Assembly (NCBI GenBank): GCA_963828495.1
Contig: CAWHFJ010000010.1
Coordinates: 1-57,414 of the forward strand
Length of the DNA stretch: 57,414 nt
DNA from: Candidatus Omnitrophota bacterium
Lineage (GTDB): Bacteria; Omnitrophota; Gorgyraeia; Zapsychrales; Fredricksoniimonadaceae
Direction: 5' to 3'
This document shows positions 1 to 50,612 of this stretch, in pieces; positions within the stretch are counted from its first letter, which is position 1, and the number at the start of each line of letters is the position of its first letter. The notes below the pieces were generated by a model. That model was not told the DNA's origin, did not search any database, and worked only from the letters and a program-made list of their open reading frames with translations. The position numbers and the translations under genes are program-made.

Positions 1-264
1 TCCGTGTCGGGTCACCGACGGTGCTTCAATTCGCCGCTGATAATCAACCGTTACTTGGCTGTAGCGGACACATCCCCGAGTCGCCTTACCATGATGGTGG
101 GAAATGGATTGCCCATGTCGGAAAAACGGTATGGCTGCAACCCGGCCAGATTAATTTCAAACTCCATTATGTGAATTTGGAAATTACCGGAGACTTTTCC
201 ATCAACTCAATCCGTCACAGCATTTTCGGCAAGGAAGCATGAACCAAATGGAAATGAAACTCAA

Positions 265-822
265 ATGAGTGAAAAGAAAACCACCGGCTGGCAGAATATG
301 CGCCGGCAATTGGACAACAGGTCGAAACCCGTGCTAATCGCGTTGGTCAAAGACCTTCACGATGCTTCGCCGGATAATCGCGATTTTCTTCTGGCCCGCT
401 TTCAGGTGGAAGACGATGCCGGCGCGGCCTTGGAAAAATACCGGCGCAAGATCGTGGAACAGTTCTTTCCGGCGCGCGGCGATGGAAAACTCAAACTGGC
501 CGAGGCGCGCAAGGCCATCCGCGATTATCGCAAGGCCACCGGCAATCTGGCCGGCACAATTGATTTGATGTTGACCTATGTGGAGAACGGCACCGAGTTC
601 ACGCATGAATTTGGCGACATTAACGAGTCCTTTTACAACAGTTTGGAATCCGTGTTGACCGAGATGGCGCAACTGCTCATGCGCGAAGGGAAAGAACTTT
701 ATCCGCGCTTTCGTGAGCGGATTCGGCGGTTGGCAATTCTCGTGGACGGCATCGGGTGGGGCTATGGTGATGCCGTGCGTGATCAAGTGTTTCAACTCGA
801 AAACGAACTGGCTGGCGAATGA
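265..822 (+). CDS. Conserved hypothetical protein (DUF6155-like, helical)
   Basis: 185-aa ATG-started ORF with natural protein composition; KLKLAEARKAIRDYRKATG and GWGYGD motifs resemble that family (recall, not searched). Confidence 0.55.
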   Translation: MSEKKTTGWQNMRRQLDNRSKPVLIALVKDLHDASPDNRDFLLARFQVEDDAGAALEKYRRKIVEQFFPARGDGKLKLAEARKAIRDYRKATGNLAGTIDLMLTYVENGTEFTHEFGDINESFYNSLESVLTEMAQLLMREGKELYPRFRERIRRLAILVDGIGWGYGDAVRDQVFQLENELAGE

Positions 823-7551: not shown

Positions 7552-7590
7552 AGGGTATCCCCGCCGCGGGGAAGGGTGCGGGGATACCCT
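7552..7590. repeat. Perfect 13-bp inverted repeat (REP-like hairpin)
   Basis: AGGGTATCCCCGC-N13-GCGGGGATACCCT. Confidence 0.5.
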
Positions 7591-7787
7591 AAAGCGGTTC
7601 AATTCCCGTCGCCTCCACCAGGCATTGGAGCGACGCCTTGTCCTTGAAAAAAGGTTCGAGCGGCCCGATACAAATGCACCAACCTTCGCTCTCCACTGCG
7701 AGCTTCCTTCGGTCCGGCAAGCCAGCATGAATCATTTGAGGCTTCCGAAAAAATGCGAAGACTGCCGCACCAAAGCGAAAGCGGGAT

Positions 7788-8675
7788 TCAACAAACCACG
7801 CGCAATTTTTCGCGTTCCACTGAAAATTTCACGGGCAAATTCCCGGCAAGCTCGCCGTCCAGTTCAAAAGATGCCGCTGCGTCACTCGACAATTCAAACG
7901 TCACCGTGCGAAACCGCCGCACCAGCTTTTCCGGCAATTTCCGCCGCGCGACCAAACCCGGCGCGCAACGCAGCAGCACCGGCCAGTTGACGCGCGGCAA
8001 AACGCAAATCTCCAGCATCCCGCCGCACAAACAGGAGTGCGGAAAAATTTCAAACGGCCCGCCGTAAAATTTCCCGTTGCCGATCAAAACCAGTTCGCCG
8101 ATGAATTTTTCTCCGCCCGCCTGCGCGGTAATTTTGGGTTTTGTCTCGCGCAGCGCCTTCAGCCCGGCGATGACATAGGCCAGCGGCCCGACCTTTTTCT
8201 TGTGCTGCCAGTCCACGAGTTCAATCGCCCGCGCATCAAGCCCCGCGCCGGCGAGTTGGACAAAATAACGCCGCCCGGTCCTGCCGTTGGCGGAAAATTC
8301 CGCTCGCGGCAGGTCAATTTTCATTTCGCTGCCACGCCGCAATACGTCCCAGGCATGTTCGAGCCGGAGCGGAATTTTGAGTTCGCGCGCAAAAACGTTC
8401 ACCGTGCCCAGCGGCAGCACGCCGAGCCGCGCCCGCGCAAAGCCGTCCGGCGCGTCGCCGAGGCCGTTCAGGACTTCGTTGATGGTTCCGTCGCCGCCGG
8501 CGGCCGCAATCAAATCGTATCCTTCGCCGATCGCCTCCGCCGCGAGCCGCCGCGCGTCGCCCGGCGCGGCAGTGGCCTTCAACGCGCATTGTGCACCGAT
8601 GAAGTCGAGTTGGCGGCGAAAATGCCGGGCTCTGTTGCCGCGGGCCGCCGGATTGAAGATGACGCAGATGCGCAC
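7788..8675 (-). CDS. Diacylglycerol kinase family lipid kinase (YegS/BmrU-like)
   Basis: IFNPAARG, AAGGDGTINEV, LPLGTVNVFAREL, ELDGE motifs. Confidence 0.9.
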   Translation of the reverse strand: MRICVIFNPAARGNRARHFRRQLDFIGAQCALKATAAPGDARRLAAEAIGEGYDLIAAAGGDGTINEVLNGLGDAPDGFARARLGVLPLGTVNVFARELKIPLRLEHAWDVLRRGSEMKIDLPRAEFSANGRTGRRYFVQLAGAGLDARAIELVDWQHKKKVGPLAYVIAGLKALRETKPKITAQAGGEKFIGELVLIGNGKFYGGPFEIFPHSCLCGGMLEICVLPRVNWPVLLRCAPGLVARRKLPEKLVRRFRTVTFELSSDAAASFELDGELAGNLPVKFSVEREKLRVVC

Positions 8676-28629: not shown

Positions 28630-29376
28630 TCAGAGATCACAGGCCTTTACTTTATCTAAAAATACCTGATCCGTCAAATCCGAATGTATGGGAGTGACGG
28701 TAATGAACTTGTTCTTTAAGGCGTAGGTATCGATGGTATTATCATTTTTATGCGCCGGCATTTGGGAGCCCATCCAATAGTAATACTTATTATGGGGGCT
28801 TTTGCGTTTTTCAAAAACTTCATGAATGGGCTCTGTTCCCTGGCGGGTTAAACGCACACCTTTGGGTTTGCCCACCGGTACGTTGACGTTAAAAAATGTC
28901 CCTGAAGGCAACTTATTTTTATAAACCCATTTAGCCAATTTAGCGGTAAACTTGGCAGCTATGGAAAAATCCAGATTATCAAAAGAGTCCAATGAGACGG
29001 CAAAAGAATTGATACCCATCAGGGCCCCTTCGCGTGCCGCGGAAACTGTCCCCGAATAAAATACGCTGCAGCCGTCATTGGCGCCGGCATTGATACCGGA
29101 AATGACCATATCGGGCTTTTGACCTTTAAAAAGCACACTCACAGCCCATTTGACACAATCCGCCGGCTTGCCACTCATGGCATAACCATCAAAACGATGT
29201 CCGGGAGAAACTTTTTTGACAAACAACGGATAAAAAAGCGTGATCCCGTGTCCCACCGAGCTTTGCTCGCAATCAGGTGCGACGAGAGTCACATCAGCGA
29301 ATTTGATGAGTTCTTTATAAGCGGCATAAATACCTTCCGCGTAAATACCATCATCATTGGTCAGTAGGATACGCAT
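28630..29376 (-). CDS. surE: 5'/3'-nucleotidase SurE
   Basis: [36 protein letters not shown]. Confidence 0.95.
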   Translation of the reverse strand: MRILLTNDDGIYAEGIYAAYKELIKFADVTLVAPDCEQSSVGHGITLFYPLFVKKVSPGHRFDGYAMSGKPADCVKWAVSVLFKGQKPDMVISGINAGANDGCSVFYSGTVSAAREGALMGINSFAVSLDSFDNLDFSIAAKFTAKLAKWVYKNKLPSGTFFNVNVPVGKPKGVRLTRQGTEPIHEVFEKRKSPHNKYYYWMGSQMPAHKNDNTIDTYALKNKFITVTPIHSDLTDQVFLDKVKACDL

Positions 29377-32066
29377 TATTTTGCCAATTTTCTTAAAACA
29401 GTTTGCAAGATACCGCCATTGCGCAAATATTCGACTTCTACCGGCGTGTCTGTGCGGGCTATGACACTAAACTCACCTCTATGGCCGTTGGCAAAAGTCA
29501 CCGCAATCCTTATTTCCTGACGAGGTTTTAATGTGTCATCCAGGTTAATAAAATCGAAAGTCTCATCCCCTTTTAATCCTAAAGAAGCATAATTTTCACC
29601 TGGTTTAAACTGACAGGGTAAAATACCCATGCCGCACAAATTACTGCGGTGAATGCGTTCAAAGCTTTCCGCAATGACAGCCTTCACCCCCAGCAAAGCA
29701 GGGCCTTTGGCTGCCCAGTCACGGGAAGAACCGGTGCCGTATTCCTTGCCGGCCAACACAATCAGAGGCGTATGCGTTTCTTTATATTTCATGGCCGCCT
29801 CATATATAAACATTTTTTCGGCCGAAGGCCAATACGTGGTCCATGGCCCTTCGCAACCCTGCGCAATTAAATTGTGCAAACGGATATTGGCAAAAGTGCC
29901 GCGGATCATCACTCTATCATTACCGCGACGGGCACCATAACTGTTAAAATCTTTTGAGTCCAACCCCTTACCCTTAAGATATTTTCCCGCAGGAGAATCT
30001 TGGGCAATGGAGCCGGCCGGTGAAATATGGTCGGTTGTAATAGAATCCGCCACCATCACCAAACATCTGGCCTGTTTAATGCCCTCCAACGGATCGACTT
30101 GTAACTTTATACCCGTAAAATAAGGAGGTTTTTGGATATAGGTGCTTTGAGCGCTTCCAGTTAAAAAGATCAGACCGGCTGTTTTTAATGGCATTCCAAT
30201 CTTTATTGCCGCGGTCTACATTTTTATAACATCGACGGAAAATAGAGGCTTTAACAAACTTGGCGCAAACCTTGGCAATTTCTTGATGGGTCGGCCAAAT
30301 GTCTTTCAGATACACCGGTTGGCCTTTTTTATCCATGCCTAAAGGTTCGTGGGTCAAATCAATATCCACCCGCCCGGCCAAAGCAAAGCGACCACCAAAG
30401 GAGGAGACGCCAAAAAATTGGCTTTGGTATACGGGTTAATACGGCCTTCAAAATTACGATTACCGGAAAGCACTGCGGCCGCAACCAGATTGCTTTTGGG
30501 TGATCGCCTGGGCCACAGGCTTCAGGCAAAGGTCCGGAATTACCGATACAAGTCGTACACCCATAACCCACGATATTAAATTTAAGTTTTTCCAAGAAAT
30601 TTCATGAGTCCGGCTTTTTTCAAATACCCTTCAACCGCCTGTGAACCCGGCGCAAAAGAAGTTTTGACATACTAGGGCGGGCTCAAGCCTTTTTCCACAG
30701 CTTTTTTGGCCAAAAGCCCGGCGGCGATCAAGACCGAAGGGTTGGAAGTATTGGTACAACTGGTAATGGCCGCAATCACAACAGCGCCATGACCAATAGT
30801 TCATGGCCATTTTGCACATTGCCGTACGGCAAATCTTGAGGAAGGCCATACCGGGATGATATCCGTATAAAGTTTGGGGAAAATTGGTTTTTAAATCTCT
30901 TAAAGGGACCCTATCTTGCGGGCGTTTGGGGCCGGCCAAACAAGGCTCTACAGTGGACAAATCCAATTCAAACACATCAGAATAAAGACATTCCGCGGAT
31001 TTTGCACTGTAAAACAATCCCTGGGCTTTATAATATTTCTCCACCAAAGCTACTTCCTGAGCGCTTCGCCCGGATAATTTCAAATACTCAAGCGTCTTTT
31101 CATCAACAGGAAATAAACCGATCGTAGCCCCGTATTCCGGCGCCATGTTGGCGATCGTAGCCCTGTCCGGCAGGGATAAATATCGTAATCCTTCCCCAAA
31201 AAACTCCACAAATTTTTCCACCACGCCTTTTTTACGTAAAATCTGGGTAATGGTCAGGACTAAATCGGTCGCCGTCACTCCCTCTTGAAGTTTACCTTTA
31301 ATACGAAAACCGACCACTTCCGGTAAAAGCATATCAATGGGCTCGCCTAACATGACAGATTCAGCTTCAATCCCGCCTACTCCCCAGCCCACAATGCCAA
31401 GGCCATTGATCATGGTGGTATGCGAATCCGTACCCACTAAACTGTCGGGATAAGCTACATTTTTTAATCCGATTTTCTTTTTTAAAACGCCTTTAGCCAA
31501 ATATTCCAGGTTGACCTGATGCACAATACCGGTGGCCGGCGGCACTACCCTGAAATTTTGTAAAGCATTCTGACCCCATTTGAGAAATTCATAACGCTCT
31601 TTATTGCGGTCGAATTCCAGACGCACATTTTGGGCCAGGGCTTGACTTGTACCAAAACGGTCGACTTGCAGGGAATGGTCGATCACAAGATCACATGGCA
31701 CCTGGGGATTGATTTTTTCTATGTCGCCCCTTAAATGTTTCATGGCGTCGCGCATGGCAGCGATGTCGACGATACAGGGAACGCCGGTAAAATCCTGCAA
31801 GATGACCCGGCCGGGTTTAAAGGCGATTTCATCTTTTTTTTCATTGGGTTTCCAATGGGCTATGGTGTCGATATCTTTTTGAGTCACTTGATAACCATCA
31901 AAGTTACGCAAAGCGCTCTCTAAAAGGATACGGATGGAAAACGGCAGTTTAGATATATCCAGGCCCCGGGTTTTGGCAAATTGAGGCAAAGAATAGATAG
32001 TATGGGAGAATTGACTTCAGCTTTTTCACAACGATTTTTTATCAAAGGGGATCATATGCGCTTCAT
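29376..32066 (-). CDS. acnA: Aconitate hydratase A, multiple frameshifts
   Basis: [47 protein letters not shown] across pieces. Confidence 0.93.
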
Positions 32067-32072
32067 TATAAG

Positions 32073-32780
32073 CTATATCGACGCCGCGTCAATAAGGAAT
32101 AAGGCAGGTTTTTTATCAAAATTGAGAGAATTTTTCTTCCATTCTTTGATGCGCATGGTCTTGATGATTTGATTAGAAGAGGTAATATCACAGGCCACGC
32201 AAAGATGGGTTTGATCATGGCAAGTCCCCAGAATGTCTTCCAGAATATTTTGATTACGGTACGGGGCCTCCATAAAAATTTGGGTTTGTTTTTCTTTTAA
32301 AGAACGTTCTTCGAGCTGCTTTATTTTTCGCGTTCTTTCCTGACGGTCACGGGGTAAATAACCGTTAAAAGCAAAATTCTGTCCGTTGAGGCCGGAGGCC
32401 ATTAAAGCCATCACAATGGAACACGGCCCCACCAAAGGCATAATATCTACGTGATGGCGATGGGCCAACAAGACCAAATCAGCGCCGGGATCTGCCACGC
32501 ATGGGGCACCGGCTTCTGAAATAATGGCCCCATCCCCTTCTTGAAGAATTTTGATGTACTCCTCAACCTGTTTAGAGGTGGTGTGTTCATTAAGATCATA
32601 AAAACGGCTCTCGCCAAGGGGGAATTGCGCATTTAATCTTTTAAGCAGGCGACGGGCAGATTTGGGTTCTTCGACAAAAAAAATACGCACATCATGAATT
32701 TCCCGGGCAATATATTCAGGAAGCAAATGCCGCTCTTCTTCATTGATCGTATTAGGGATTAAATATAATTTAGGCCTCAT
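32073..32780 (-). CDS. Tetrapyrrole-methylase-family SAM methyltransferase (RsmI-like)
   Basis: [51 protein letters not shown]. Confidence 0.85.
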
Positions 32781-34213
32781 TGAGAATCTTTGCCCCATGT
32801 CTTTTCCAGATAGGACTCGCGCCCGGAATTATCGTGGTACGAATTATATTGAATCGCACTTTTTTGGTAATATTTCTGATGATAATCTTCCGCCGGATAA
32901 AATGTTGACGCCGGTAGAATTTGAGTCGCAATAGGTTGATGAAAACGGCCGGAAGCGTTCAGGGCCCCTTTAGACTTCTCTGCCAGGCGTTTTTGTTCTT
33001 CATTGTGGTAAAAAATCACGGTCCTGTATTGCGTGCCTTCATCCACAAACTGGCCGTTCATCTGGGTGGGGTTAATATTATGCCAGTAGATGTTCAGGAT
33101 TTTTTCATAGGAAACCACCTGTGGGTCGAATTCTACCTGAATGGCTTCAGCATGACCGGTTGTGCCTGAAGAGACTTCCTCATAAGTGGGATTGGGAGTA
33201 GTCCCGCCGGTATAACCCACGGTCGTTTTCTTGACCCCTGGGGTATGGTCAAAAAAAGGCTGCATGCACCAAAAGCATCCGCCGGCAAAAGTCGCTTTTT
33301 CTAAATGCGGGTCCTTCAGCGCAACCCCCTGCTCTGAAGGTACGAATTTTAGGGCCACTGAATTGATACAATATCGCTTGCCTGTCGGTGCCGGGCCGTC
33401 ATCAAAGACATGCCCCAGATGCGCCCCACAGCGCGGGCAATACACCTCAATACGGGTCATACCAAGAGTTTTGTCCGTCAAATAAGCCATATTTTTCTCA
33501 TCAATGGGCTTGGTAAAACTGGGCCAGCCGGTTCCCGAGTCAAATTTATCCTCTGATGAAAATAAATCCAGACCGCAGTCAACACATTGATAAATGCCTT
33601 TGCGATGATTGTTGACATATTCTCCGATAAATGGCCTCTCAGTCCCTTTCCGGCGGGTCACATGATATTGCAAAGGAGTCAATATTTTCTTCCATTCTTC
33701 TGATGTCTTTTCTATCTTGGAGGTTTGAATATAAGATTGAGTGGCGGCATCATAAACCTCAATAGTATTTTGAGTTGTCATAGCTAATCCCTCCAATGCT
33801 TGCAATACTTGAGAAAATTCTTTAGAACTCGCAGCCCCTATGATCCGGGAATCTTTGACTTCATGACCATGGCTATCCAAAAAAACAACTGTCGGCACGC
33901 CGTCAATTTCATATTCCTGGATAATACTTTGCACTTTTGGCTCATCCATATCAGTCACATCCACCCGCAAGGCGGTCACTCGAGCCAATTGAGCTATAAT
34001 GGAAGGATCTGAAAAAACGGTTTGGTCTAATTCATGACAACCGGGACACCAGTCCGCATAAAAATCAATGACAACAGGTTTTTTTTGGTTGATGGAATTT
34101 AGCACCGCCTGCTTGCTGTAAGGCTTCCAAACAGATTGTCCTTGCTCCAAACCCACCTGCCGGCATGAGGTCAAAACAACGATCAGAAATATTAAACCAA
34201 TTAAATTTTTCAT
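32777..34213 (-). CDS. msrAB: Lipoprotein thioredoxin-MsrB-MsrA fusion
   Basis: Lipobox LTSC; [10 protein letters not shown]; Msr[30 protein letters not shown]; Msr[21 protein letters not shown]. Confidence 0.9.
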
Positions 34214-35107
34214 TTAACAACCGGTACCGTTGGTCACGCAAATATCATCGCCAGCTTTTGATACAACACCGGCCGCACTAACTGTAGGGGAGACAACGGG
34301 CGGCGGATTATGTACTAAAAAGCCATCTGCGTAATACTCATGACTGCCGTCTAATTGCGGGTTATAAACAACCACATCCTTGAATATTTTGAATGCAATC
34401 TTTTTCAGCCGTATTAACCCGGTGCGACCAACCAATCCGTCCCCCACTTGAAGTAGACCCACGTTAATTCCCGAATGTTGCTTTTGAGCTGTTTTAGGAT
34501 TAAGCGCCTTCCAGCCATGATCCGTCATAAAAAGATGGTCATCCGTCACAAAATATCTGCCCCCGTTAAAAGCATAGATCTTCCTGTCTTCTTTGGGCAT
34601 GACTTTAAAATGAACAAACTTATTGCGTGCTTGCTGTGAACCTAATAGCACATCCCCCGCTTGCAGGCTTTCAATGGCCTTCGTATGTCCATTGGCCAGC
34701 AGGACCTTCGTCCCTGATATAAAACACCCCCATTGACCATTCGGTCCCATAGAACCAATGACATAATATTGTCCATTCGCGGAAAGGTAATAATTATACT
34801 CCGTTGCAGGTGTAGGATTAAAAGGATCATAGAGTGGACTGGTAATGACCTGTGGTGTGGCCGAGACTAAATAATCAGCTCCCAGTGTAGTTGTCGCAGA
34901 ACCGGGAGTTCCGGGATAGGTAGACGGCGATGAATTGCTATAATACGACTCCACTGCCGCCTGAAGAGTTTGCAACTCAGCTTTGACCTGGGTTATTTGA
35001 CCTGCTTGCTGCATACCACTCATGCGCGGGATGGCAATACCAATAAGTATCGCCAGCACAGAGAGAACAATCACTAATTCTAGGATCGTAAAAGCTTTTT
35101 TGTTCAT
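34214..35107 (-). CDS. GspG/type IV pilin-like protein with internal Hint domain, copy 4 (+1 = Pro)
   Basis: MNKKA|FTILE prepilin motif, Pro22; Hint 34307-34726 (CFISGT..TDDH..VYN..LVHN), followed by PPPVVS. Confidence 0.88.
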   Translation of the reverse strand: MNKKAFTILELVIVLSVLAILIGIAIPRMSGMQQAGQITQVKAELQTLQAAVESYYSNSSPSTYPGTPGSATTTLGADYLVSATPQVITSPLYDPFNPTPATEYNYYLSANGQYYVIGSMGPNGQWGCFISGTKVLLANGHTKAIESLQAGDVLLGSQQARNKFVHFKVMPKEDRKIYAFNGGRYFVTDDHLFMTDHGWKALNPKTAQKQHSGINVGLLQVGDGLVGRTGLIRLKKIAFKIFKDVVVYNPQLDGSHEYYADGFLVHNPPPVVSPTVSAAGVVSKAGDDICVTNGTGC

Positions 35108-35115
35108 ATGGCTTC

Positions 35116-36009
35116 TTAACAGCCAGTACCATTGGTCACGCAAATATCATCGGCAACTTTTGTTACAACACCGGTCGTACTAACTGTAGGGTAGGGAGGA
35201 TGGATCGTATTATGTACTAAAAAGCCATCCGCGTAATACTCATGACTGCCGTCTAATTGCGGGTTATAAACAACCGCATCCTTGAATATTTTGAATGCAA
35301 TCTTCTTCAGCCGTATTAACCCGGTGCGACCAACCAATTCGTCCCCCACTTGAAGTAGACCCACGTTAATTCCCGAATGTTGCTTTTGAGCTGTTTTAGG
35401 ATTAAGCGCCTTCCAGCCATGATCCGTCATAAAAAGATGGTCATCCGTCACAAAATATCTGCCCCCGTTAAAAGCATAGATCTTCCTGTCTTCTTTGGGC
35501 ATGACTTTAAGATGAACTACCTTATTACGTGCTTGCTGTGAACCTAATAGCACATCCCCCGCTTGCAGGCTTTCAATGGCCTTCGTATGTCCATTGGCCA
35601 GCAGGACCTTCGTCCCTGAGATAAAACACCCCCATTGACCATTCGGTCCCATAGAACCAATGACATAATATTGTCCATTCGCGGAAAGGTAATAATTATA
35701 CTCCGTTGCAGGTGTAGGATTAAAAGGATCATAGAGCGGACTGGTAATGATCTGTGGTGTGGCCGATACTAAATAATCAGCTCCCAGTGTAGTTGTCGCA
35801 GAACCGGGAGTTCCGGGATAGGTAGACGGCGATGAATTGCTATAATACGACTCCACTGCCGCCTGAAGAGTTTGTAGCTCAGCTTTGACCTGGGTTATTT
35901 GACCTGCTTGCTGCATACCCTTCATACGCGGGATGGCAATACCAATAAGTATCACCAGCACAGAGAGAACAATCACTAATTCTAGGATCGTAAAAGCTTT
36001 TTTGTTCAT
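35116..36009 (-). CDS. GspG/type IV pilin-like protein with internal Hint domain, copy 3 (+1 = Thr)
   Basis: Same architecture; Hint 35209-35628, followed by TIHPPY. Confidence 0.88.
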   Translation of the reverse strand: MNKKAFTILELVIVLSVLVILIGIAIPRMKGMQQAGQITQVKAELQTLQAAVESYYSNSSPSTYPGTPGSATTTLGADYLVSATPQIITSPLYDPFNPTPATEYNYYLSANGQYYVIGSMGPNGQWGCFISGTKVLLANGHTKAIESLQAGDVLLGSQQARNKVVHLKVMPKEDRKIYAFNGGRYFVTDDHLFMTDHGWKALNPKTAQKQHSGINVGLLQVGDELVGRTGLIRLKKIAFKIFKDAVVYNPQLDGSHEYYADGFLVHNTIHPPYPTVSTTGVVTKVADDICVTNGTGC

Positions 36010-36019
36010 ATGGTCTCCT

Positions 36020-36910
36020 CTAACAGCCTGTTCCATTGGTCACGCAAATATCATCGGCAACTTTTGATACAACACCGGTCGTACTAACTGTAGGAGGAGA
36101 GGTGGGCACATTATGTACTAAAAAACCATCCGCATAATACTCATGACTGCCGTCTAATTGCGGGTTATAAACAACCGCATCCTTGAATATTTTGAATGCA
36201 ATCTTTTTCAGCTGTATTAACCCGGTGCGCGTAACAACTTCGTCCCCTACTTTCAGCTGGCCCACTTTGATTCCTGGATGTTGCTTTTGAGCTGTTTTAG
36301 GATCAATCGCCTTCCAGCCTTCCTTGGTCATAAAAAGATGGTCATCCGTCACAAAATATCTGCCCCCGTTAAACGCATAGATCTTCCTGTCTTCTTTCGG
36401 CATGACTTTAAGATGAACAACCTTATTACGTGCTTGCTGTGAACCTAATAGCATATCCCCCGCTTGCAGGCTTTCAATGGCCTTCGTATGTCTATTGGCC
36501 AGCAGGACCTTCGTCCCTGATATAAAACACCCCCATTTACCATTCGGTCCCATAGAACTAATGACATAATATTGTCCATTCGTAGAAAGGTAATAATTAT
36601 ACTCCGTTGCAGGTGTAGGATTAAAAGGATCATAAAGCGGACTGGTAATGATCTGTGGTGTGGCCGATACTAAATAATTAGCTCCCAGTGTAGTTGTCGC
36701 AGAACCGGGAGTTCCGGGATAGGTAGACGGCGATGAATTGCTATAATACGACTCCACTGCCGCCTGAAGAGTTTGTAACTCAGCTTTAACCTGGGTTATT
36801 TGACCTGCTTGCTGCATACCCTTCATACGCGGGATGGCAATACCAATAAGTATCACCAGCACCGAGAGGACAATCACTAATTCTAGGATCGTAAAAGCTT
36901 TTTTGTTCAT
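36020..36910 (-). CDS. GspG/type IV pilin-like protein with internal Hint domain, copy 2 (+1 = Val)
   Basis: Same architecture; Hint 36110-36529, followed by VPTSP. Confidence 0.88.
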   Translation of the reverse strand: MNKKAFTILELVIVLSVLVILIGIAIPRMKGMQQAGQITQVKAELQTLQAAVESYYSNSSPSTYPGTPGSATTTLGANYLVSATPQIITSPLYDPFNPTPATEYNYYLSTNGQYYVISSMGPNGKWGCFISGTKVLLANRHTKAIESLQAGDMLLGSQQARNKVVHLKVMPKEDRKIYAFNGGRYFVTDDHLFMTKEGWKAIDPKTAQKQHPGIKVGQLKVGDEVVTRTGLIQLKKIAFKIFKDAVVYNPQLDGSHEYYADGFLVHNVPTSPPTVSTTGVVSKVADDICVTNGTGC

Positions 36911-36918
36911 ATGGCCTC

Positions 36919-37809
36919 TTAACAGCCAGTACCATTGGTCACACAAATATCATCGGCAGCTTTTGATACAACACCGGTCGTACTAACTGTAGGGGATGAA
37001 ACAACCGCATTATGTACTAAAAAGCCATCCGCGTAATATTCATGACTGCCGTCTAATTGCGGGTTATAAACAACCACATTCTTGAATATTTTAAACTCAA
37101 TCTTTTTCAGCCGTATTAACCCGGTACGAGTAACAACTTCGTCCCCTACTTTCAGCTGGCCCACTTTAATTCCCGAGTGCTGCTTTTGAGCTGTTTTAGG
37201 ATCAAGCGCCTTCCAGCCATGATCCGTCATAAAAAGATGGTCATCCGTCACAAAATATCTGCCCCCGTTAAACGCATAGATCTTCCTGTCTTCTTTCGGC
37301 ATGACTTTAAGATGAACAACCTTATTACGTGCTTGCTGTGAACCTAATAGCATATCCCCCGCTTGCAGGCTTTCAATGGCCTTCGTATGTCTATTGGCCA
37401 GCAGGACCTTCGTCCCTGAGACAAAACACCCCCATTTACCATTCGGTCCCATAGAACCAATGACATAATATTGTCCATTCGTAGAAAGGTAATAATTATA
37501 CTCCGTTGCAGGTGTAGGATTAAAAGGATCATAGAGTGGACTGGTAATGATCTGTGGTGTGGCCGATACTAAATAATTAGCTCCCAGTGTAGTTGTCGCA
37601 GAACCGGGAGTTCCGGGATAGGTAGACGGCGATGAATTGCTATAATACGACTCCACTGCCGCCTGAAGAGTTTGTAACTCAGCTTTGACCTGGGTTATTT
37701 GACCTGCTTGCTGCATACCCTTCATACGCGGGATGGCAATACCAATAAGTATCACCAGCACCGAGAGGACAATCACTAATTCTAGGATCGTAAAAGCTTT
37801 TTTGTTCAT
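36919..37809 (-). CDS. GspG/type IV pilin-like protein with internal Hint domain, copy 1 (+1 = Ala)
   Basis: GAGGAGG RBS; Hint 37009-37428 (C128-N267), followed by AVVSS. Confidence 0.88.
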   Translation of the reverse strand: MNKKAFTILELVIVLSVLVILIGIAIPRMKGMQQAGQITQVKAELQTLQAAVESYYSNSSPSTYPGTPGSATTTLGANYLVSATPQIITSPLYDPFNPTPATEYNYYLSTNGQYYVIGSMGPNGKWGCFVSGTKVLLANRHTKAIESLQAGDMLLGSQQARNKVVHLKVMPKEDRKIYAFNGGRYFVTDDHLFMTDHGWKALDPKTAQKQHSGIKVGQLKVGDEVVTRTGLIRLKKIEFKIFKNVVVYNPQLDGSHEYYADGFLVHNAVVSSPTVSTTGVVSKAADDICVTNGTGC

Positions 37810-37931: not shown

Positions 37932-39470
37932 ATGAAAGTGGTGATCCTTAATCCATCCTTTGGGGATGATTTTGTACGGGTAGCCCGTTGGGCTGCCAAA
38001 TCCCGCGGACGTGTTCAACGCCATCCCGAATATTTGCTGACAGCCGCGCAAGTCCTCATTGATGCCGGGCATGACACTCATTTTATTGAGGCTGCCGCGC
38101 GTAATTTTACCCAAAAAGAATCTGTTGAAACAACCATAGCCCTCCAACCTGACCTTTTAGTCATCCATGCGACCACCCCTTCTATTTATGCGGACATTGA
38201 AGGTGCCCGTATCATTAAAGATAAAACCAAATGCAAAGTGGCTTTTGTGGGCCAGCATGCCACCGCTGAAGTGGACAATACCTTTGACATAGGCCGAGGG
38301 GTCGTGGATTATATTTTGCCACGCGAATACGATTATACGTTGCGTGACCTGGCAGGTGGCCTTGCGGACGATAAAAATTTGGGGCTTTGCTGGCTTTCCA
38401 ACGGAAAAGTGATAAAAAATATGCCCCGCGCTGACATCGATGTCAACGAGCTCCCCTTTCCCGCGTGGCACCTCATCCAGCCCGAATGGTATCCTGACGC
38501 CGGTAAAAAATTCCCTTTTTTGACTTTAATGACCGGCCGCGGCTGTAATAATGCCTGCACTTTCTGCCGTGACCCTCAGTTGATGTATGGCTATAAATTA
38601 CGCAGTCGCAAAGCCGAACTGGTTATCGCTGAAATGGAATATGATTTAAAGCTTTTTCCCCAAATCCGCGAGATCATGTTTGAAACAGACACCTTTGCCG
38701 CTGACCGCCAGAATGTCATTGATGTCTGCAATTTGATCATTGCCAAAGGCCTTCATAAAAAGATCAGCTGGTCATGCAATATGCGTGTGAACACGGACTT
38801 AAGCCTTCTGCCTTTAATGCGTCAAGCCGGCTGCCGTATGTTGATGACCGGTTTTGAATTTGGTACCGATGAAAATTTACGCGTTGTTCGTAAAGGCGGC
38901 GTTTCTATTGATATGGCCCGTGCCTATGCCAAAGAAGCTCACCGGCTGGGATTTACCGTTCATGGTTGTTTTATGTTCGGCGCTCCCGGCGAAACCAAAG
39001 ACAGTGCGCGTCAAACCATTGAATTTGCCAAGTCCATGCCTTTGGACACTATTCAGTTTACCGGGATAGCCTGTTATCCGGGCACGTCACTGTATCAATG
39101 GGCCAAAGAAAATAATTACCTATTAGCCCGTGATTGGAAAGACTGGCTGACCGAATGCGGCGAACAGCGCACGTTGCTTTCCTATCCTCAATTTTCCCAT
39201 AAAGATATCGACGAGTATATTGATATAGGTCTCAAAGAATTTTATTTAAGGCCGAAACAGATATGGCGCATGTTTATTGCTATTCATTCCATGGGAGATT
39301 TCCTGCGCAAATTATACGGATTGAAAGCTTTTGTGCATTATTTCACTCAAAAAATGTTTAGAGTCCTCCCCGCCAAACGCCCGGATGAAAAACCAACACC
39401 AAAATTTCTAAAGCGCACGGTACGTGTGCGCCCCAAACAAAACATCCCTGTATTGACACCTGTGCATTGA
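37932..39470 (+). CDS. B12-binding-domain radical SAM protein (HpnJ/BchE-like)
   Basis: GRGCNNACTFC (CxxxCxxC), N-terminal cobalamin-binding-like region, GAPGET, YPGT. Confidence 0.85.
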   Translation: MKVVILNPSFGDDFVRVARWAAKSRGRVQRHPEYLLTAAQVLIDAGHDTHFIEAAARNFTQKESVETTIALQPDLLVIHATTPSIYADIEGARIIKDKTKCKVAFVGQHATAEVDNTFDIGRGVVDYILPREYDYTLRDLAGGLADDKNLGLCWLSNGKVIKNMPRADIDVNELPFPAWHLIQPEWYPDAGKKFPFLTLMTGRGCNNACTFCRDPQLMYGYKLRSRKAELVIAEMEYDLKLFPQIREIMFETDTFAADRQNVIDVCNLIIAKGLHKKISWSCNMRVNTDLSLLPLMRQAGCRMLMTGFEFGTDENLRVVRKGGVSIDMARAYAKEAHRLGFTVHGCFMFGAPGETKDSARQTIEFAKSMPLDTIQFTGIACYPGTSLYQWAKENNYLLARDWKDWLTECGEQRTLLSYPQFSHKDIDEYIDIGLKEFYLRPKQIWRMFIAIHSMGDFLRKLYGLKAFVHYFTQKMFRVLPAKRPDEKPTPKFLKRTVRVRPKQNIPVLTPVH

Positions 39471-40615: not shown

Positions 40616-42033
<1,418 letters not shown>

Positions 42034-42044
42034 AAATAACCTTT

Positions 42045-42915
42045 CTATTTCAGCGCTTCTGCTCCGGATATGACTTCAATTAATTCCGTTGTGATCCCCG
42101 CTTGCCGCGCACGATTGCGCAACAGCGTGTAGCGGTCAATTAAATCTACCGTATTCTGGGACGCTTTATCCATCGCTGACATGCGTGCCCCGTGTTCACC
42201 GGCCGCATTTTCCAGTAATACAAAGAAAATTTTAAAACTCAAAAATTTAGGGATTAAGAATGAAAATATCTGGGTTTCTTGAGGTTCATACGTATAGTAG
42301 GCGTTGGGGAACCGCATGTCATTGCGGACTAAAACAGACGGCTCCAAAGGCAATATTTTTTCAATCACCGGCGTTTGGGACAAAGGCCCGTTAAAATGAT
42401 TGTAGGCCAAATAAATTTCGTCGTATTCTTCTTTGATAAACGCGGTTGTCATATCTTGGGCGACGTTTAAGGCGTCATTGAAATCCGGCTTAACCGTGAT
42501 ATTTTCATAATATTTCCGGATGCGCGCGCTACGGCGAAAAGACATATACCCCCGGCGCCCGCAAAAACTCATGTCCATGGTGGCGTACTTATGACGATTG
42601 TCTTGTGCCCAGCTTCTTGGTTTTTCGAATCAAATTATTATTAAAAGCGCCGCACAGCCCCTTGTCTGAAGTAAATAAAATGATCAAAGCCCTTGTCGCT
42701 GTTTTTTGTATTTTAAACAACGGATGATTCTCCGAGCCTGCCCTGGCAAGGCGCGCTATGAGTTCGGAGAGCTTGGCCGCATACTCCTTAGCATTGATTT
42801 GCGCCTTATAGGCCTTCTTGAATTTGCTGGCCGAAACCATTTTCATGGTTTTGGTCATCTTGCCCATATTTTTCAGCGAAATAATTTTCTTATTATATGC
42901 TTTGATACTGATCAT
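42045..42915 (-). CDS. atpG: ATP synthase gamma subunit, frameshift near 42590
   Basis: [33 protein letters not shown]. Confidence 0.93.
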
Positions 42916-49646: not shown

Positions 49647-50612
49647 TCAACCACATGCCTCAATCAAATACCCCTCTTTCTTATCATATCCGTTGAGCTT
49701 CAAAATCGAAGTCACTAGTCTGCCTTTTTTATTCTTGTTGCTTTTTTGAATATAAACCAACAAGTTGACTGCTTCCGCTATAGCCTCAGGCACACAAACA
49801 ACCCCAGATTCCATCATTAATTGTTCTAATCGTAAAAGCCCGCTTTGGGCGGAATTCGCATGCACGGTGCTTACACCCCCCGGATGGCCGGTATTCCAAG
49901 CCTTAATCAGCGAATACGCCTCTTTACCGCGCACTTCGCCGATGATAATTCTATCCGGCCTTATACGCATACAATCAAAGATCAAATCATTCATTGTTTT
50001 TGTCGGTGATACTCCGCATAGTCACAGAATCTTTGACATTGCATTTGAGTTCCTGAGTATCTTCAATAATGATAATTCTATCGTCGGGATGTGTCCGGCA
50101 ATGCAATCCAAAATCGCATTACAGAATGTTGTTTTACCTGATTGCGTGCCGCCCACGACCAAAATGGACATTCTTTTTCCCACAGACTCTTTTATTATTA
50201 TCTCTTGCTGTGCTGTTAATATTTCGTCTTTTACATAATCTTCCAATGGGATGACCGACCCCGCGCGTTTTCTGATAGCAAACGCCGGATATGACACGAC
50301 CGGTGGGATAAAAGCTTGAAATCGGAATAATTTAAACTCATCATTGATTTCAACCCAGAGTTCCCCTCCAAAACTGGGATTCTTATACGTGATGATTTCA
50401 TCTGATACGCTGGCGACCGTGTTAATCAAATTTTTCGCCGCCGCAGCCGTCATTAACCCATATTCGTGTTTACCTTTATAGCCATCGACCCACAAGGTCC
50501 CGTCAGGATTAAGTAAAATTTCATAAATCTCTTCATCCGCAAGTGCCGATAAAACAAGCTGACCTAAATCTTGTTTTAATTTATTTTGCGTCCGCGAGTG
50601 TTCCCTCAGCAT
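49647..50612 (-). CDS. trbB: P-type conjugative ATPase TrbB/VirB11, frameshifted near 50050
   Basis: EILLNPDG, GGTQSGKTT, RPDRIIIGEVRG, AWNTGHPGG.STVHAN. Confidence 0.88.

Follow-up and report, generated by a model that had tools for sequence, protein, structure and literature searches.

The window analysed here, a 57,414-nucleotide stretch of a Candidatus Omnitrophota genome (contig CAWHFJ010000010.1), carries an array of four head-to-tail paralogous genes encoding prepilins, each of which is interrupted close to its C-terminus by a Hint domain. The short tail that follows the Hint domain is the C-terminal part of the pilin itself and no cargo, and the Hint domain splits a conserved host fold. 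The reading preferred here, to which a probability of roughly one half is assigned, is that this Hint domain, which resembles the type-A bacterial intein-like (BIL) domains, cuts itself out once the pilin has been exported; the head would then keep a docked tail, either religated through the freed α-amine or nicked.

The first gene of the array (copy 1, 36919..37809 on the reverse strand) is an open reading frame of 296 codons plus a stop, in which LYDPF (residues 92-96), EYNYY and YYVIGSMGPNG are followed by the Hint domain, from Cys128 to His266-Asn267, and then by KAADDICVTNGTGC. An earlier note on this DNA had quoted these strings, the Hint domain and the tail, all of which are present, and the range annotated there (36919-37540) corresponds to residues 90-296 plus the stop codon. 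The GspG-like head (residues 1-127; 37429..37809, reverse strand) comprises the leader MNKKA, the FTILE sequence and helix α1 and ends with YYVIGSMGPNGKWG. The Hint domain of BIL type (residues 128-267, 140 aa; 37009..37428, reverse strand) contains blocks A, B, F and G and is delimited by the codons of Cys128 (37426-37428) and Asn267 (37009-37011). Directly after Asn267, a variable, proline-rich linker (residues 268-275, AVVSSPTV; 36985..37008, reverse strand) leads into the conserved tail (residues 276-296, TGVVSKAADDICVTNGTGC; 36922..36984, reverse strand), and the part downstream of the Hint domain amounts to 29-30 residues in each copy (29 in copy 1), ending in DDICVTNGTGC. Subtraction of the 140 Hint residues from 296 leaves 156 residues, and the chain ends in a C289-x6-C296 pair, both as the earlier note had given them.

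A comparison with Hint-free relatives identifies the tail. A word-indexed search returned 50 relatives, among them approximately 25 Hint-carrying pilins from Omnitrophota metagenomes and many Hint-free pilins of 145-190 aa with the same C[VI]TNGxGC terminus, and a second search, seeded with a Hint-free paralog from the same genome (P0191, contig C11), added approximately 80 further relatives. In the 111-row alignment (26 Hint-carrying, 78 Hint-free and seven Hint-only rows), the slot of the Hint domain is occupied by 0-9 residues, mostly 2, in the 78 Hint-free pilins, and the alignment is continuous across the junction. A C-terminal C[VI]TNGxGC and the motifs of the head recur in both the 78 Hint-free and the 26 Hint-carrying pilins, far beyond chance, and close pairs are found that differ essentially by the Hint domain (Hint-carrying P0020 versus Hint-free P0117 and P0248). 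The C-x6-C end is present in 25 of the 26 Hint-carrying and 63 of the 78 Hint-free rows, whereas the two aspartates that precede I-C (D286-D287 in copy 1) occur in 23/26 Hint-carrying rows versus only 12/78 Hint-free rows. The Hint domain interrupts the last surface loop, which leads from ...GPNGxWG to the final strands. Because the Hint-free homologs align across the junction and the structural alignments of the model described below extend to residue 296, the tail represents the C-terminus of the pilin itself, and removal of the Hint domain yields a chain colinear with its relatives, which bears out the earlier proposal that the tail is not cargo.

The structure of copy 1 was modelled with AlphaFold2 from the 111-row alignment, which gave a mean predicted local distance difference test (pLDDT) score of 93.0, a predicted template modelling (pTM) score of 0.74 and tail blocks at 91-97; this model supersedes one built from just the 23 Hint-pilins (pLDDT 52). 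In the model, the long α1 corresponds to helix 8-57 and the tail contributes strands 280-282 and 288-291. In a comparison against approximately 48,000 representatives of the PDB with VIA, the best pilin match is V. cholerae EpsG (4lw9_A; Z 7.8, root-mean-square deviation (rmsd) 3.0, 94 aligned residues, model 31..296 on chain 26..133), together with PulG (5wda_A; Z 7.4, rmsd 3.9, 119 aligned residues, model 1..296 on chain 1..130), both at Z values below 8, which the tool regards as middling and which may reflect merely a common arrangement. Both alignments run to residue 296 and skip the Hint domain, so that the tail is probably matched to the C-terminal segment of the GspG fold, which suggests that the tail packs on the pilin head as the earlier note had expected. 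In sequence comparisons, a profile of the Hint-free pilins aligned with PulG no further than profile position 119, and phmmer searches of the PDB with the C-terminal 81 aa of one relative (P0250) and 123 aa of another (P0211) gave no GspG match. That the Hint domain sits in the equivalent of the Ca2+-binding loop of GspG, as the earlier note proposed, is therefore a conjecture, and the assembly switch suggested there is a hypothesis.

By sequence, the copies are members of the type IV pilin and pseudopilin superfamily, with a prepilin leader, an N-methylation motif and a mature N-terminus FTILE whose Glu lies at +5 (E10 of the precursor). TIGR02532 recognizes copy 1 at 17.5 bits, above the cut-off of 16.3, and PF07963 scores 19.2 bits on copy 1 and 21.1-21.2 bits on copies 2-3 when these are extended, against a cut-off of 21.2. 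The mature Phe is preceded by Ala5 (codon 37795-37797) in the window copies, and relatives have Gly or Ser at this position; the usual residue before the prepilin-peptidase cleavage site is Gly. Membership in the GspG family is another matter, and neither profile scores nor a location in a gsp operon would place the copies there. TIGR01710 aligns residues 5-127 of copy 1 with profile positions 2-122 of 134 (E 1.8e-8) at 34.5 bits, which fails its cut-off of 88.85, and PF08334 (T2SSG) is absent from the matches of the copy 1 protein at E <= 0.1. Among the Hint-free homologs, PF08334 matches 30/61 at E <= 0.01, and the relative P0211 passes its cut-off (23.3 versus 21). The pilins share the Glu5 prepilin N-terminus, the long α1 and the small β head with GspG, EpsG and PulG (PF08334, TIGR01710; 4lw9, 5wda) and differ from them in the sub-cut-off score on TIGR01710, in the C-terminal C-x6-C pair and in that the operon of the Hint-free paralog, with PilM, a secretin, a response regulator and an MshEN-ATPase, is not a classical gsp operon. 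The earlier note had likened the strings around the Hint domain to DPW..Y.Y..S.G.DG..D.DI, which it gave as the motif of GspG.

The assignment of residues 128-267 to the Hint fold is supported, being strong by fold and sub-threshold by sequence. The Pfam models of Hint type all score below their curated cut-offs (Hom_end_hint, 25.8 bits versus 32.1; Hint, 20.9 versus 29.7), and the best sequence match in the PDB, 6tmm/6y75, has an E value of about 8e-7 at 24-25% identity. In structure searches, the leading Foldseek matches, ahead of inteins, are 6y75 (1.1e-11) and the BIL domain 2lwy of C. thermocellum (4e-8), and VIA gives Z 19.2 for 6tmm (rmsd 2.3, 145 aligned residues), 17.4 for the gp41-1 intein, 16.5 for 2lwy (rmsd 1.9, 127 residues) and 15.7 for the DnaB intein. 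The catalytic positions are Cys128 (block A), Thr188..His191 (block B), His256 (block F) and His266-Asn267 (block G), and C128, T188, H191, H256, H266 and N267 are each invariant in all 23 aligned full-length Hint-pilins, at identities down to 51%.

The residue after Asn267, at which an intein carries its +1 nucleophile, shows no such constancy. Across the 23 Hint-pilins, the window copies included, the +1 residue is A, V, P, R, I, N, K, S or T, with S or T in 3 and a non-nucleophilic residue in 20; in copies 1-4 of the window it is A, V, T and P, respectively, so that the nucleophile is missing in three of the four and the Thr of copy 3 is the sole candidate. The same pattern extends to the wider family. 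When 1.84 billion representatives were searched with a profile, 481 proteins were recovered at E <= 1e-30; the top 150 are mostly large proteins, many with several Hint copies, and 248 full-length domains were drawn from 161 proteins with at least one. These domains start with Cys in 247/248 and end with His-Asn in 235/248 cases, and the +1 residue is S, T or C in 12 and a non-nucleophile in the other 236, with Lys in 167. Some members (P0023, P0063, P0089 and P0118) contain back-to-back Hint arrays, in which a His-Asn-Lys end is followed within a few residues by the next Cys1.

Because the +1 Cys/Ser/Thr is missing in most members, the domain is not a canonical intein. It fits the description of type-A BIL domains, an assignment made by fold together with the pattern of His-Asn without a +1 nucleophile and not by a curated BIL profile. 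Type-A BIL domains have a C-terminal His-Asn and no +1 nucleophile (PMC4031507), and their splicing through a thioester, Asn cyclisation and attack by the freed amine is possible, with cleavage products dominating (PMC4031507). The pilin Hint shares with the type-A BIL domain of C. thermocellum (2lwy) the Hint fold, the N-terminal Cys, the block-B T..H, the His-Asn, the absent +1 nucleophile, the absent endonuclease and the occurrence in exported, variable proteins (Amitai 2003 and Dassa 2004, via PMC4031507). It differs in that BIL domains are described in variable regions, whereas the pilin Hint always interrupts its host at the same position, the flanks on either side are conserved, and homologs with an empty site exist.

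Selection was gauged from pN/pS values, with Nei-Gojobori counts summed over the six pairs of the four copies. The values are 0.26 for the head, 0.30 for the Hint domain and 0.28 for the tail; among the four copies, the Hint domain and the tail are thus under purifying selection. The linker after Asn267 has a pN/pS of 1.29 over 7 codons (few sites) and a one-codon indel, and is the most variable stretch among the copies.

The scheme proposed for the self-excising Hint domain builds on the architecture, the insertion site, the catalytic conservation, the missing +1 nucleophile, the modelled docking and the pilus machinery of the genome; its chemistry and the order of its steps are inferred throughout. 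The prepilin would enter the membrane and its globular part would be exported, and head and tail would fold together with the Hint domain looped out. An N-to-S acyl shift at Cys128 would then generate a thioester at Gly127, and cyclisation of Asn267 would release the tail, which in its docked state would keep the α-amine of residue 268, whatever that residue is, beside the thioester. Attack of this amine on the thioester would constitute nucleophile-free splicing, and hydrolysis instead would give a nicked two-chain pilin. The free Hint domain would be lost, and the product of approximately 156 aa (before leader removal) could be assembled like the Hint-free paralog. The suggestion of the earlier note that excision rebuilds a normal pseudopilin therefore holds in part: the Hint-less product is colinear with the relatives, but the intein splicing that this assumes is not supported, as the +1 nucleophile is missing in 3/4 copies and 20/23 Hint-pilins, and only the nucleophile-free type-A BIL route could religate head and tail.

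Several observations weigh against self-excision with a retained tail. BIL domains are reported to give predominantly N- and C-cleaved products and not spliced ones (PMC7664689, PMC4031507). A proline at +1, as in copy 4 and four other relatives, should be poor for both Asn cyclisation and aminolysis, and an exported Cys1 may be oxidised outside the cytoplasm. The block of the model at the N-terminal junction (121-130) reaches a pLDDT of only 76, and the contacts between head and tail are taken from the aligned ranges and not from coordinates. The loop from G121 to G279 without the Hint domain has a median of 18 residues versus 13 in the Hint-free pilins, and the approximately 5 extra residues are those of the variable, proline-rich stretch following Asn267. 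Additionally, the array in the window is located apart from the pilus operons, and public reads gave only short contigs, with shares of at most 0.33, and neither joints nor a Hint-less allele nor a contig covering the whole array was among them.

The predominance of cleaved BIL products (PMC4031507, PMC7664689) is what would be expected if the Hint domain were an autoprotease that cuts at Gly127 and/or Asn267, with the Hint domain plus tail discarded or set free as a product of its own and the tail-less head working as the pilin. In the wider family, the Hint domains occur in tandem arrays or flanked by modules unrelated to each other, settings in which cleavage alone is sensible, and this also agrees with such an autoprotease. 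Such cleavage without rescue of the tail is nevertheless unlikely in the pilins: their tail is as conserved as the head, its C[VI]TNGxGC end equals that of 63/78 Hint-free pilins, a motif that a discarded piece should not retain, and it is modelled within the sheet of the head. Self-excision with a retained tail is preferred over cleavage and discard because the tail is conserved, equals the C-terminus of the family and is modelled in the sheet.

The same low probability is given to the absence of any processing, with the Hint domain persisting as a displayed module at the surface or tip of the pilus, like the bulky domains of modular pilins. The termini of the Hint domain are close together, so that in the model the head fold can accommodate it as a looped-out insert without steric conflict, and giant pilins with FN3 and lectin-like modules are encoded in the same type of operon. 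An inert module, however, would need none of the catalytic residues that are invariant over the 23 sequences.

A further possibility is that an amine from elsewhere resolves the thioester at Gly127, for example that of a Lys in an adjacent subunit, of a molecule on the cell surface or of a protein from a host or prey, which would result in a covalent pilus or covalent adhesion. The nearest solved relative, 6tmm/6y75, is the BIL2 domain of the Tetrahymena thermophila BUBL1 locus, which couples its N-flank to amines and makes Lys isopeptide bonds to several substrates (PMC8616854), Hedgehog attaches cholesterol by the same first step (PMC7664689), and type IV pili have been proposed to mediate host attachment in Omnitrophota (PMC10066038). 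BIL2 is the best match of the pilin Hint in both sequence and structure and its thioester is resolved by an amine, but it is eukaryotic and cytoplasmic and has ubiquitin-like flanks, whereas the flanks of the pilin Hint are the two parts of one pilin. Inspection by eye of the head and tail alignment revealed no Hint-specific conserved Lys, no target is known, and the conserved docked tail would put its own amine nearest to the thioester; transfer to an outside amine is improbable.

A broader proposition, that maturation of the pilin requires extracytoplasmic nucleophile-free splicing or that the Gly127 thioester forms covalent bonds, with the Hint domain as a one-shot activating group, is distinctly unlikely. 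If it were true, the Hint domain would be no passenger and would either gate pilus assembly or tether the pilus by a covalent bond to an adjacent subunit or to the surface of a host or prey, as a BIL-based counterpart of sortase-built or thioester-domain adhesins.

A canonical class-1 intein, as implied by the earlier note, which would restore the pseudopilin by four-step splicing through a branched intermediate on a +1 Cys/Ser/Thr, is very improbable: blocks A, B, F and G are all there, the split of a conserved host fold with empty-site homologs is typical for inteins, copy 3 has its Thr and gp41-1 (Z 17.4) and DnaB (15.7) are close structural matches, but +1 is A, V or P in 3/4 copies and a non-nucleophile in 20/23 Hint-pilins and 236/248 domains of the wider family, a homing endonuclease is missing, and the host is an exported pilin, unlike the cytoplasmic replication and repair proteins that usually host inteins. 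Compared with class-1 mini-inteins (gp41-1, Npu/Ssp DnaB), the pilin Hint is alike in its size of 140 aa, its blocks, its conserved host and the existence of intein-free alleles, and differs in mostly lacking the +1 Cys/Ser/Thr and in its exported, structural host.

BIL domains are regarded as cleavage modules of variable secreted proteins and inteins as splicing parasites of conserved cytoplasmic enzymes. The pilin Hint combines the two, in that BIL chemistry without a +1 nucleophile is placed at an intein-like fixed site in a conserved exported fold, and selection maintains both halves of that fold. Should the pilin depend on a rejoined or retained tail, it would be an example from nature in which nucleophile-free ligation or a nicked two-chain pilin is a biological necessity, and self-excision as proposed here would be a previously undescribed self-processing step in the biogenesis of type IV filaments; the domain could also be of use in engineering as a compact, naturally extracytoplasmic module for ligation or cleavage. 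Among titles and the opening parts of abstracts, a scope outside which most subscription journals fall, no description of a pilin with a Hint or BIL domain turned up, and a survey of Omnitrophota has 0 occurrences of "hint" or "intein" (PMC10066038). The trait is rare. One of 401 sampled genomes of the phylum carries it, the 400 others being without a match at E <= 1e-40 with at most 5 candidates scored per genome, and it would be a lineage-specific curiosity unless a function is shown. A scan of the genome contigs with patterns of the N-terminal helix recovered almost only Hint-free pilins.

The distribution of the Hint domain among the pilins was followed on a tree of head plus tail with 102 rows (24 Hint-carrying and 78 Hint-free), from which the seven Hint-only rows and two fragments truncated at the N-terminus were excluded. 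The presence of the Hint domain changes 5 times on this tree, and the well-supported branches alone force 1 change. The approximately unbiased (AU) test disfavours a single Hint-carrying clade (p 0.0215, log-likelihood difference 56.4), a result weakened by long branches (P0025). In a FastTree phylogeny of the 248 Hint domains, all 27 pilin-site Hints fall into one clade (support 97) together with 17 Hints from other contexts, and within this clade the context seems to change 3 times. The Hint domain of copy 1 shares 59% identity with that of a giant pilin from the same genome; with pilin-site Hints elsewhere, the identity is 56-79%. Because of the head and tail tree, the AU test, the Hint tree and these identities, it is likely that the Hint domain was gained repeatedly at one site or lost from it with precision, in either direction as far as these sequences indicate; loss could occur, for example, by conversion from Hint-free paralogs.

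The four copies of the array are spaced by approximately 900 nt, encode products of 296-297 aa with identities of 91-95% and all lie on the reverse strand. Copy 1 is followed by copy 2 (36020..36910; 296 aa counted from the ATG; Hint 36110-36529; Val at +1), copy 3 (35116..36009; 297 aa; Hint 35209-35628; Thr at +1) and copy 4 (34214..35107; 297 aa; Hint 34307-34726; Pro at +1). As read from the sequence, only 8 nt separate the stop of one copy from the next ATG, with GAGG within them. An assembly artefact or pseudogene is ruled out by the four intact frames, the purifying selection and the presence of similar arrays on independent contigs. At 37651-37801, a stretch common to all four copies, a 151-nt contig from a wetland metatranscriptome (X17) matches with 2 differences; this is no proof of transcription, as carry-over of DNA is possible.

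The genome, of which the window represents contig C10, comprises 1.8 Mb in 26 contigs at 72% completeness and encodes assembly machinery for pili, with 3 prepilin-peptidase matches, many T2SSE ATPases and several secretins. An operon on contig C11 begins with a giant pilin, minor pilins (one with Laminin_G_3), a secretin and a response regulator, and continues with an MshEN-type ATPase, T2SSF, the Hint-free paralog and a PilM-like protein. The giant pilin (C11 39795-42206, reverse strand; 802 aa from the ATG in an 803-codon open frame) consists of a pilin head, an internal CVTNGSGC, a Cys-rich region, two FN3 domains, a Hint domain and two further FN3 domains. A homolog of 1327 aa is encoded on the metagenome contig L092 (2935-6918) and is followed directly by at least 2 Hint-pilins up to the end of the contig; it too has a pilin head with a CVTNGSGC-like motif, a Cys-rich region and FN3 repeats, and the Hint domains of the giant pilins, which are of the same family as those of the array, sit between FN3 modules and have Val or Ala at +1. 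Contig L090 carries five Hint-pilins in a row, one of which is cut. Judged from these gene orders, tandem arrays of Hint-pilins recur and, in a relative, belong to this pilus operon.

Downstream of the array, a gene for a thioredoxin-MsrB-MsrA fusion (32777..34213, reverse strand), whose product has a lipoprotein-like N-terminus by eye, abuts the stop of copy 4 and may be co-transcribed with the array. In another Omnitrophota metagenome-assembled genome, L016, MsrB and MsrA are encoded by two individual genes (7556-8554) with pilin genes on one side and the secretin on the other, and a conserved link of pilins to the repair of methionine sulfoxide and thiols may exist. Upstream of the array, at a 122-nt spacer, lies a divergent gene for a B12-binding radical SAM protein of 512 aa (37932-39470, forward strand), for which no connection with the pilins was found and which is absent from two related arrays (L090 and L092, on short or cut contigs). 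A reading of the locus as tandem precursors of a ribosomally synthesized and post-translationally modified peptide, served by the B12-radical SAM enzyme, was rejected, as the supposed core is the C-terminus of the pilin and the radical SAM gene is missing in L090 and L092.

Elsewhere in the window, translations of housekeeping genes at 29376-31989, 40616-42033 and 42045-42915 look split, with an aconitase-like gene in three pieces and the ATP synthase β and γ genes in two each, while the pilin copies are intact; the splits could be frameshifts, pseudogenes or sequencing errors. A match to the T2SSE family of ATPases (90 bits) with one in-frame TGA is located at 49755-50369 on the reverse strand.

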